Source: a virus (Duplodnaviria; Caudoviricetes). From it: a stretch of DNA of 58,691 bases. Of this stretch, positions 54,046 to 54,168 are shown piece after piece; the first letter of the stretch is position 1; every line of letters begins with the position of its first letter. The stretch spans positions 1-58,691 of IMG/VR virus record IMGVR_UViG_3300030060_004945; one strand, written 5' to 3'. Under the pieces are notes generated by a model that was given only the letters and a program-made list of their open reading frames with translations, had not been told where the DNA came from and ran no database searches. The translations under genes and the position numbers were made by a program.

Positions 54046-54168
54046 AGTTTGTAACTGACACAGATACTTCTACAAGTGTATCTGTCGTTGTGTTTCGACC
54101 ATTTAAGGTAGATGCTTGAACACCCTCCGGAGTTTATACTCTCCGGCATCATCAGAGTTACCTAAACT
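54046..54168 (-). ncRNA. Hammerhead-type ribozyme with expanded stem II
   Basis: Sense: AGTTT-AG-GTAACT-CTGATGA-T-G[three hairpins]C-GAAAC...GTC^AGTTAC-AAACT. Stem I is GTAACT/AGTTAC; core CUGAUGA 54155-54149 and GAAAC 54096-54092; GUC triplet 54059-54057. Confidence 0.7.

Follow-up and report, generated by a model that had tools for sequence, protein, structure and literature searches.

The 58,691-nucleotide (nt) virus record IMGVR_UViG_3300030060_004945 (Duplodnaviria; Caudoviricetes), analysed here over its whole length and referred to as the window, very probably encodes a genuine type I hammerhead ribozyme. The ribozyme of this phage of about 59 kb would be active in cis, and its stem II is predicted from sequence to be a four-way junction. 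All parts of a type I hammerhead are present on the minus strand at 54161–54051 (Table 1), and those described in an earlier note on this DNA are at the positions given there. The ribozyme lies before the first of a series of small early open reading frames (ORFs), and the 3′ half of its sequence recurs, without a core, before each of the others. It is possible, and is proposed here tentatively, that the leader carrying the ribozyme also cuts these 12 coreless boundaries in trans.

The core box, the GAAA segment with its A15.1–U16.1 pair (54093 and 54058, kept in 17 of 17 aligned rows), an NUH triplet before the 3′ strand of stem I and the G10.1–C11.1 pair are all found. The element departs from the consensus in the single U that interrupts the core, in a stem II that is not a simple hairpin, and in having no match to an Rfam model. 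The earlier note had described an extra U after CUGAUGA and one G–C pair closing three adjacent hairpins; each of these is where it was placed, and RNAfold and covariation agree with them. An alternative register of stem III with five continuous pairs can be drawn, so the linker listed in Table 1 is one of two readings.

Table 1. Positions of the hammerhead, its leader and the coreless units in the window (rows refer to the alignment of 17 homologues)
Feature	Position	Strand	Remarks
Hairpin P0, 6 bp, loop CUUAA	54181–54165	minus	3 nt upstream of stem I; both-side changes in 2/6 pairs, all cells pair
Stem I 5′ strand, GUAACU	54161–54156	minus	complementary to 54056–54051; invariant in 17/17 rows
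Core box C3–A9, CUGAUGA	54155–54149	minus	invariant in 17/17 rows
Extra U between A9 and G10.1	54148	minus	invariant in 17/17 rows
Stem II domain, predicted four-way junction, 51 nt	54147–54097	minus	all cells paired in alignment
G10.1–C11.1, closing pair of stem II	54147/54097	minus	G–C in 17/17 rows
Hairpin 1, 6 bp, loop AGUAUAAA	54146–54127	minus	both-side changes in 4/6 pairs
Single A between hairpins 1 and 2	54126	minus	
Hairpin 2, 6 bp including G–U pairs, loop UCAA	54125–54110	minus	both-side change in 1/6 pairs, one-side change in 1
Hairpin 3, 3 bp, loop UUAAAU	54109–54098	minus	both-side change in 1/3 pairs
Core G12-A13-A14-A15.1, GAAA	54096–54093	minus	invariant
C15.2	54092	minus	invariant
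Linker before stem III hairpin, 6 nt here	54091–54086	minus	6, 7 or 10 nt among rows
Stem III hairpin, 8 bp, abutting GUC	54085–54060	minus	
G16.2-U16.1-C17, GUC triplet	54059–54057	minus	GUC in 16 rows, GUU in 1 row
Predicted cut	between 54057 and 54056	minus	from the hammerhead rule
Stem I 3′ strand, AGUUAC	54056–54051	minus	
A/U-rich 5′ untranslated region (5′UTR)	up to ATG 54031–54029	minus	first early ORF, 53750–54031
Structured non-coding leader, about 230 nt, ending in the hammerhead	54390–54162	minus	5′ end inferred
Bacteroidota-type promoter-like site	54428–54398	minus	TTG 54428–54426, 20-nt spacer, TATATTTG 54405–54398
Coreless units 1–6, GTYAGTTAC	53720–53728, 53577–53585, 53374–53382, 53043–53051, 52731–52739, 52182–52190	minus	
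Coreless units 7–12, GTYAGTTAC	51918–51926, 51623–51631, 51122–51130, 50678–50686, 50337–50345, 49987–49995	minus	

The minimum-energy fold from RNAfold holds all three hairpins (z = −3.02; 1 of 200 shuffles as good), with pair probabilities of 1.00, 0.89 and 0.91 for hairpins 1, 2 and 3. Seventeen distinct homologous rows from other phage contigs, found with search patterns in which core and flanks were fixed, were aligned. Across a structure that includes P0 and stems I to III, standard pairs fill all 645 of 645 cells. Both-side changes are seen at eight pairs, four in hairpin 1, one each in hairpins 2 and 3 and two in P0, and one pair of hairpin 1 occurs as A–U, G–C and U–A. The comparison across homologues that the earlier note had proposed thereby extends to all three hairpins. 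The covariation score was reached by none of 500 shuffles, and structures slid by 1–3 columns leave just 22–34 % of cells paired. The loops of hairpins 1 and 2 are each altered in a single row. With regard to the three helices of the hammerhead, six pairs of the stem II domain change on both sides, whereas stems I and III are constant within this clade; between phages, stem I differs and is always complementary.

G10.1–C11.1 together with hairpin 3 equals the usual stem II of the relatives, 4 bp with a U-rich loop, so the novelty consists of two hairpins inserted between 10.1 and 10.2. Judged by fold and covariation, stem II is a four-way junction in which hairpin 1, one A and hairpin 2 occupy that place. 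The branched form is not confined to one phage. A pattern scan of viral contigs returned 10 loci, five with the same branched ribozyme and five false matches in coding regions, and a metagenome scan whose pattern required 30–60 nt in stem II between fixed flanks returned 22 loci, every one with the same three hairpins. These scans yielded 16–17 distinct versions, and the element sits always at the same place, after a conserved leader. A blastn search of 53700–54700 against the phage collection gave no match, nor did an exact 19-mer scan of viral contigs.

Two genes served to gather loci of related phages: the GroEL-like neighbour gave 80 and the first early gene 10. A script scan of them gave 55 distinct sequences, of which 38 are simple hammerheads, 15 are branched and 2 are false positives by inspection. 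The 38 simple sequences are type I hammerheads with 12–18 nt from A9 to G12, and these canonical hammerheads occupy sites equivalent to that of the branched ribozyme. Stem I of each relative is complementary to the site of its own phage, and its sequence differs between phages. Rfam Hammerhead_1 covers two of the simple relatives at full length, with scores of 31.0 and 27.6 bits (cut-off 34); at the gathering score, none of 13 relatives was matched. In phages with simple hammerheads only, the number of sites composed of GUH plus the stem I sequence equals the number of complete ribozymes or is within two of it. The earlier note had seen in the insert the main reason to doubt the ribozyme call, a doubt that the canonical hammerheads of the relatives and the covariation resolve in favour of the ribozyme.

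In three relatives (L090, L093 and L094) hammerheads with a simple stem II stand before homologues of the first early gene. These have a strong hairpin (−12 to −15 kcal/mol) 3 nt upstream of stem I, and long insertions in stem III. In the window, the P0 loop CUUAA (54171–54175) and the hairpin 3 loop UUAAAU (54101–54106) could form a kissing contact of 4 bp, UUAA with UUAA, which would correspond to the usual contact between the loops of stems I and II. The hairpin 3 loop reads UUAGAU in 6 of 17 rows, an A-to-G change that would preserve the contact as a G–U pair.

The extra nucleotide has precedents. The CChMVd(+) hammerhead carries an A between A9 and G10.1, and replacement of that A by U is reported to have raised the trans-cleaving rate 3–4 fold (PMC3705267). 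A nucleotide at this position is described as conserved in hammerheads of Penelope-like elements (PMC4209133), and the extra U is found also in three simple hammerheads of the related phages. As far as these sources describe it, the nucleotide between A9 and G10.1 is a natural, tolerated variant; it occurs in natural active hammerheads, and is therefore a departure from the consensus yet no bar to membership of the class.

The 3′ half of the element, comprising the hairpin, GUC, AGUUAC and an A/U-rich stretch up to the ATG, is a repeat found on the minus strand before each small early ORF, so on its own it is no evidence for a ribozyme. GTYAGTTAC matches the window 14 times, always on the minus strand, against 1.13 matches expected by chance, and 13 of the 14 lie within 49987–54059, one before each early ORF. 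From 49.9 to 54.4 kb the minus strand contains just one CTGANGA, that of the ribozyme, and none is near any of the 12 other units. In four other records, one of them with a completeness rating of 100 %, 9, 10, 10 and 8 sites accompany one core each, and this core invariably precedes the first site by about 100 nt. Separate coreless candidate substrate sites that match the arms of the ribozyme, as expected for action in trans, are present. An excess of coreless sites is seen only where the ribozyme is elaborated, and relatives with simple hammerheads show none.

The coreless units also preserve the nucleotides that a hammerhead substrate requires. Among 129 distinct units, in whose collection the upstream triplet was left free, G16.2 is present in 127, U16.1 in 128 and U16.3 in 99; at N17, 93 units have C and 36 have U, and none has A or G. 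The upstream hairpin, determined in 127 units, ends at position 16.3 in 64, 16.1 in 35, 16.2 in 7, 16.4 in 6 and 17 in 5, and hence within 16.4–17 in 117 of 127, while its sequence varies freely. Of 54 distinct unit hairpins, 40 have tetraloops (16 of them GNRA or UNCG), which points to selection on RNA. The ribozyme's own site is built in the same way, with an 8-bp hairpin abutting GUC. A 14-mer scan of viral contigs gave at least 120 stretches and was unspecific; among the matches listed, only one new locus (L226) had at least two units, and this is the other end of the record holding L105. On the sense strand, the host promoter consensus is not found in the units. An antisense TAnnTTTG box within the unit was also considered and was rejected as the chief explanation; its TA varies among units, and most units lack a correctly spaced −33 element.

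Gene boundaries in the relatives carry further kinds of element. The early intergenic regions of L026 hold 3 hammerheads, 3 covarying copies of a three-way junction and 2 tRNA-like elements, each followed by the same 5′UTR motif. L102 has the branched ribozyme, and the boundaries in its operon are of three sorts: AGUUAC sites without a core, a single complete simple hammerhead whose site has another sequence, and a single element similar to the three-way junction. These mixed boundary elements imply that transcripts run across gene boundaries in this phage family, and processing just before the 5′UTR seems to be the rule. The three-way-junction element, about 55 nt (minus strand of L026, 2776–2848, 3626–3698 and 1160–1232), lies where the hammerheads lie, just before the shared 5′UTR, and its counterpart in L102 lies between the ORFs at 5631–5936 and 5256–5453 (contig coordinates). 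Its outer stem and both hairpins covary between copies, the GUGCG and AUUCGC-like loops are conserved, and no Rfam family matches it at E ≤ 1. The element may represent an undescribed ribozyme, or else a processing signal of minimal, tRNA-like form. The tRNA-like elements (L026, minus strand, 2133–2219, and a second before the ORF at minus-strand index 13243, near the end of the locus) stand between early genes and combine a hairpin resembling a T-arm with an acceptor-like stem, after which comes ACCA. The Rfam tRNA-Sec model gives 31.8 bits (cut-off 47), and ARAGORN finds no tRNA in L026, L012, L036, L099 or L109. RNase P and tRNA punctuation separate the cistrons of polycistronic RNA, and the tRNA-like elements suggest punctuation of the early RNA by RNase P and RNase Z.

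From the sequence, we infer transcription, cleavage and action in trans to proceed as follows. A host-type promoter probably starts a leader of about 230 nt at the head of a 13-cistron early operon, with the ribozyme as the 3′ domain of the leader. The ordinary hammerhead reaction would cut after C17, removing the leader and leaving the first cistron with the A/U-rich 5′UTR (AGUUACAAA...) common to all other early genes; the leader-ribozyme would be left ending in a cyclic phosphate. In the possible extension to trans, the leader-ribozyme, having cut itself off the first cistron, would recognize the 12 units of the same transcript through its 6-nt stem I arm plus A15.1 and C15.2, stacked on the hairpin of the unit as a nicked stem III. 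The polycistronic RNA would thereby be converted to 13 single-gene mRNAs, and P0, hairpins 1 and 2 and the flexible linker would be adaptations to a short arm and to product release. The short arm, the nearby P0, the single core for 13 sites, the conserved substrate positions and the mixed boundaries in L102 fit this proposal, and so do the engineered 'discontinuous' trans hammerheads, whose short arms are reported to suffice with tertiary contacts in place (PMC3064770). The earlier note had suggested that the insert may supply tertiary contacts for docking in trans; such contacts are hypothetical, and the genome context, one core for 13 substrate-like sites, lends the suggestion support that had not been expected. 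For protein binding, which the note had also raised, the evidence points neither way.

Several observations weigh against the ribozyme call. No ribozyme or riboswitch family, including the hammerhead RF00163 and its clan CL00010, matches 53700–54600 or 54000–55500 in Rfam at E ≤ 10, and the only match in the whole window at the gathering score is a tRNA at 39903–39976. Stem I, G10.1–C11.1 and stem III do not vary among the 17 rows, so within this clade complementarity is the sole support for stems I and III. Because the homologues are close relatives (mean column identity 92 %) found with patterns in which the core was set in advance, the changes counted as covariation cannot be taken as independent events. 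In a metatranscriptome run (share 0.12; contigs only), ten contigs of a relative map here, and one of 435 nt spans 54047–54275 with the ribozyme uncut; contigs show no transcript ends. That none covers 49500–49901 or 54324–55500 proves nothing. An inactive sequence that resembles a hammerhead by chance or through decay, resting on an intergenic repeat, would suit the missing Rfam match, the membership of the 3′ half in a 13-copy repeat that is not specific to the ribozyme, and the reading of the upstream GUAACU as a partial inverted copy of the motif. It is nonetheless very improbable given that the core is invariant, that every helix is kept in 17 versions with stem II pairs changing on both sides, that the place after the conserved leader is constant, and that the relatives have canonical hammerheads at equivalent sites. 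A regulated ribozyme, in which the branched stem II senses a phage or host protein or a small ligand or toggles through a GAUGC/GCAUC pairing, turning cleavage on or off in the course of infection, is unlikely as well. Engineered allosteric hammerheads carry sensors on stem II, and here the loops are conserved while the stems covary (loops 1 and 2 each altered in 1 of 17 rows, against four of six pairs of hairpin 1). The complementarity that the earlier note had pointed out is real and present in 13 of 17 rows; its proposed role as a switch was rejected as the main explanation. The alternative helix shows no covariation. A U-to-C change gives an A–C mismatch in 4 of 17 rows, and the same change is compensated by A-to-G within hairpin 2. 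Enforcing the alternative yields −27.3 instead of −31.5 kcal/mol, a cost of 4.2 kcal/mol, and its pair probability is 0.001 as compared with 0.89 for hairpin 2. Neither a conserved exclusive pairing nor a ligand pocket was found, no riboswitch, aptamer or other such Rfam family matches in the searches given above, and no ligand or protein partner is indicated. The inserted hairpins probably form a folded accessory domain and not an on/off switch.

The alternative that bears most closely on action in trans leaves the ribozyme itself intact. A hammerhead acting in cis only may serve as an insulator that strips the leader from the first cistron, with the inserted hairpins just stabilizing the active fold; this is a real possibility, about as likely as action in trans but short of an even chance, and it rivals the trans extension alone and not the ribozyme call. 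The units would then be served by a host or phage RNase, by an unknown promoter or by a terminator plus 5′UTR signal, or would be what is left of lost hammerheads, with recombination keeping them alike. In phages, early genes are often preceded by repeated motifs. Hairpin 3 with G10.1–C11.1 reproduces the stem II of the relatives, so the cis fold needs nothing further, and the relatives have one cis ribozyme per site, which makes cis action the norm of the family. The same direction is indicated by the mechanics of the proposed trans reaction. An arm of 6 bp plus two pairs means weak binding, the ribozyme keeps its own stem III hairpin after self-cleavage and would need it displaced, U16.1 is already paired inside the unit hairpin in 35 of 127 units, and the conserved unit motif could serve another factor. 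Natural small ribozymes, and all known natural hammerheads, are described as cis-acting, and no natural hammerhead is known to cleave in trans (PMC6765202, PMC6155905). Cis action only, however, leaves unexplained the substrate nucleotides of the units (G16.2 in 127 and U16.1 in 128 of 129; N17 never A or G), the hairpins that abut the site, and an excess of coreless sites confined to elaborated ribozymes. The units also lack the host consensus on the sense strand, and the searches given below found no phage RNA polymerase. The extension to trans is the one preferred here, as a tentative proposal beside cis cleavage.

The promoter-like block, found in a scan for TAnnTTTG with an upstream TTG, lies about 240 nt upstream of the ribozyme, is conserved in relatives and would mark the start of the early transcript. 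Other full matches on the same strand are at 53140, inside a gene, and then at 49467, just past the early block. Most likely, the host produces the early RNA as a single polycistronic molecule of about 4.4 kb. The leader is conserved in alignments of 6 and 20 sequences, for which RNAalifold gives 18 pairs, 7 of them changed on both sides; no Rfam family matches it at E ≤ 10. The phage record is 97 % complete, with terminase and portal found, and the host is probably a marine member of the Bacteroidota. The ORF at 21149–26221 (plus strand, 1690 aa) has a weak match to a crAss-type (Crassvirus) muzzle protein (Pfam PF25731, 1.4e-8). A virion RNA polymerase of the crAss type was looked for in the 2710-aa ORF at 31078–39210 (plus strand) and rejected; this ORF matches only DUF3293 in Pfam, lacks the DFDxD motif and has no PDB match. 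The 10 ORFs compared with PHROG likewise gave no phage RNA polymerase, nor did the DFDxD motif and PDB searches with the 2710-aa ORF. In the crAss-like phage phi14:2, no upstream motif is reported to be shared by the early transcripts, and early non-coding RNAs of unexplained role are described as abundant (10.1101/2020.03.07.982082).

Between the early promoter and the small plus-strand gene at 54891–55103, about 400 nt (54440–54860) contain no convincing ORF; relatives share conserved blocks of this region, among them G-runs and, after AAAUCUGACGUUUU, a hairpin that covaries. The GroEL-like chaperonin is encoded at 55426–57030 on the plus strand; the closest entry to it in the phage collection, MW202828, shows 58 % identity, and Flavobacterium and Cellulophaga phages show about 39 %.

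An invariant 7-mer of the leader, UGUAGUA (54168–54175), is complementary to UACUACA before most early start codons. Pairing is complete over the 7 nt in 78 of 109 distinct 5′UTRs (1 of 210 permutations as good), and at a threshold of 6 paired bases 108 of 109 match (2 of 210 permutations as good). The hairpin 1 loop is likewise complementary to an overlapping UAUACU in the 5′UTR, at the same threshold in 52 of 109 (5 of 168 permutations as good). Permutations were matched for composition; both complementarities were noticed first and tested after, and their targets overlap. In the first-unit 5′UTRs of the relatives, complementarity to the loop or the 7-mer is not kept in all. Both complementarities are treated as leads only.

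Hammerheads are the best-studied small ribozymes. A four-way-junction stem II with covariation support widens the models with which they are searched, since the Rfam models miss the branched form entirely. Additionally, this phage family appears to punctuate its early operon with RNA-processing elements, each just before a shared 5′UTR. The presence of one core and a dozen coreless sites with the exact substrate nucleotides makes natural action of a small ribozyme in trans directly testable; if the proposal is true, this would be a natural trans-acting hammerhead and hence a true enzyme. A full-text literature search returned no branched stem II and no phage hammerhead in trans, a result on which the supplementary figures of Perreault et al. 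(2011) might bear. The role of many bacterial and phage hammerheads is still called an open question (PMC6155905, PMC6765202).

The closest known elements are the type I hammerheads of phages and prophages (PMC3088659, RF00163), with which the present one shares the core, the open stem I, the GUC and the place between small phage genes. Perreault et al. (2011) describe multiple hammerheads flanking prophage genes, propose that long transcripts are cut into gene-length mRNAs, and report stem II of just 1–2 bp as well as various core insertions (PMC3088659). By comparison with the hammerheads described there, a predicted four-way junction of 51 nt takes the place of a short hairpin, no Rfam model matches, and a single core accompanies 13 sites, where the others have a core at each. 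The hammerheads of CChMVd(+) and Penelope-like elements likewise have one nucleotide inserted at exactly A9/G10.1 (PMC3705267, PMC4209133), but they are of viroid or retroelement origin and have a simple stem II. Among hammerheads that are split between strands, the engineered 'discontinuous' trans hammerheads of Carbonell, Flores and Gago (2011) also place a hairpin of the ribozyme beside a short stem I arm, and arms of 3–4 bp are reported to suffice if loop–loop contacts are kept (PMC3064770). Those constructs are man-made and form stem III between molecules, whereas in the phage P0 is 3 nt from a 6-nt arm and each candidate substrate, known from sequence, brings its own stem III hairpin. 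In the natural discontinuous hammerhead of mammalian Clec2 3′UTRs (Martick et al. 2008, as cited in PMC6765202) the enzyme and substrate strands are likewise far apart; there, one enzyme and one substrate strand share an mRNA, as opposed to a dozen sites. In function, the nearest parallel is punctuation by RNase P and tRNA, in which an RNA enzyme acting in trans separates cistrons at structured marks (PMC6765202); RNase P has another fold and another chemistry, and the cutting in trans that would make the phage leader its counterpart is a proposal.

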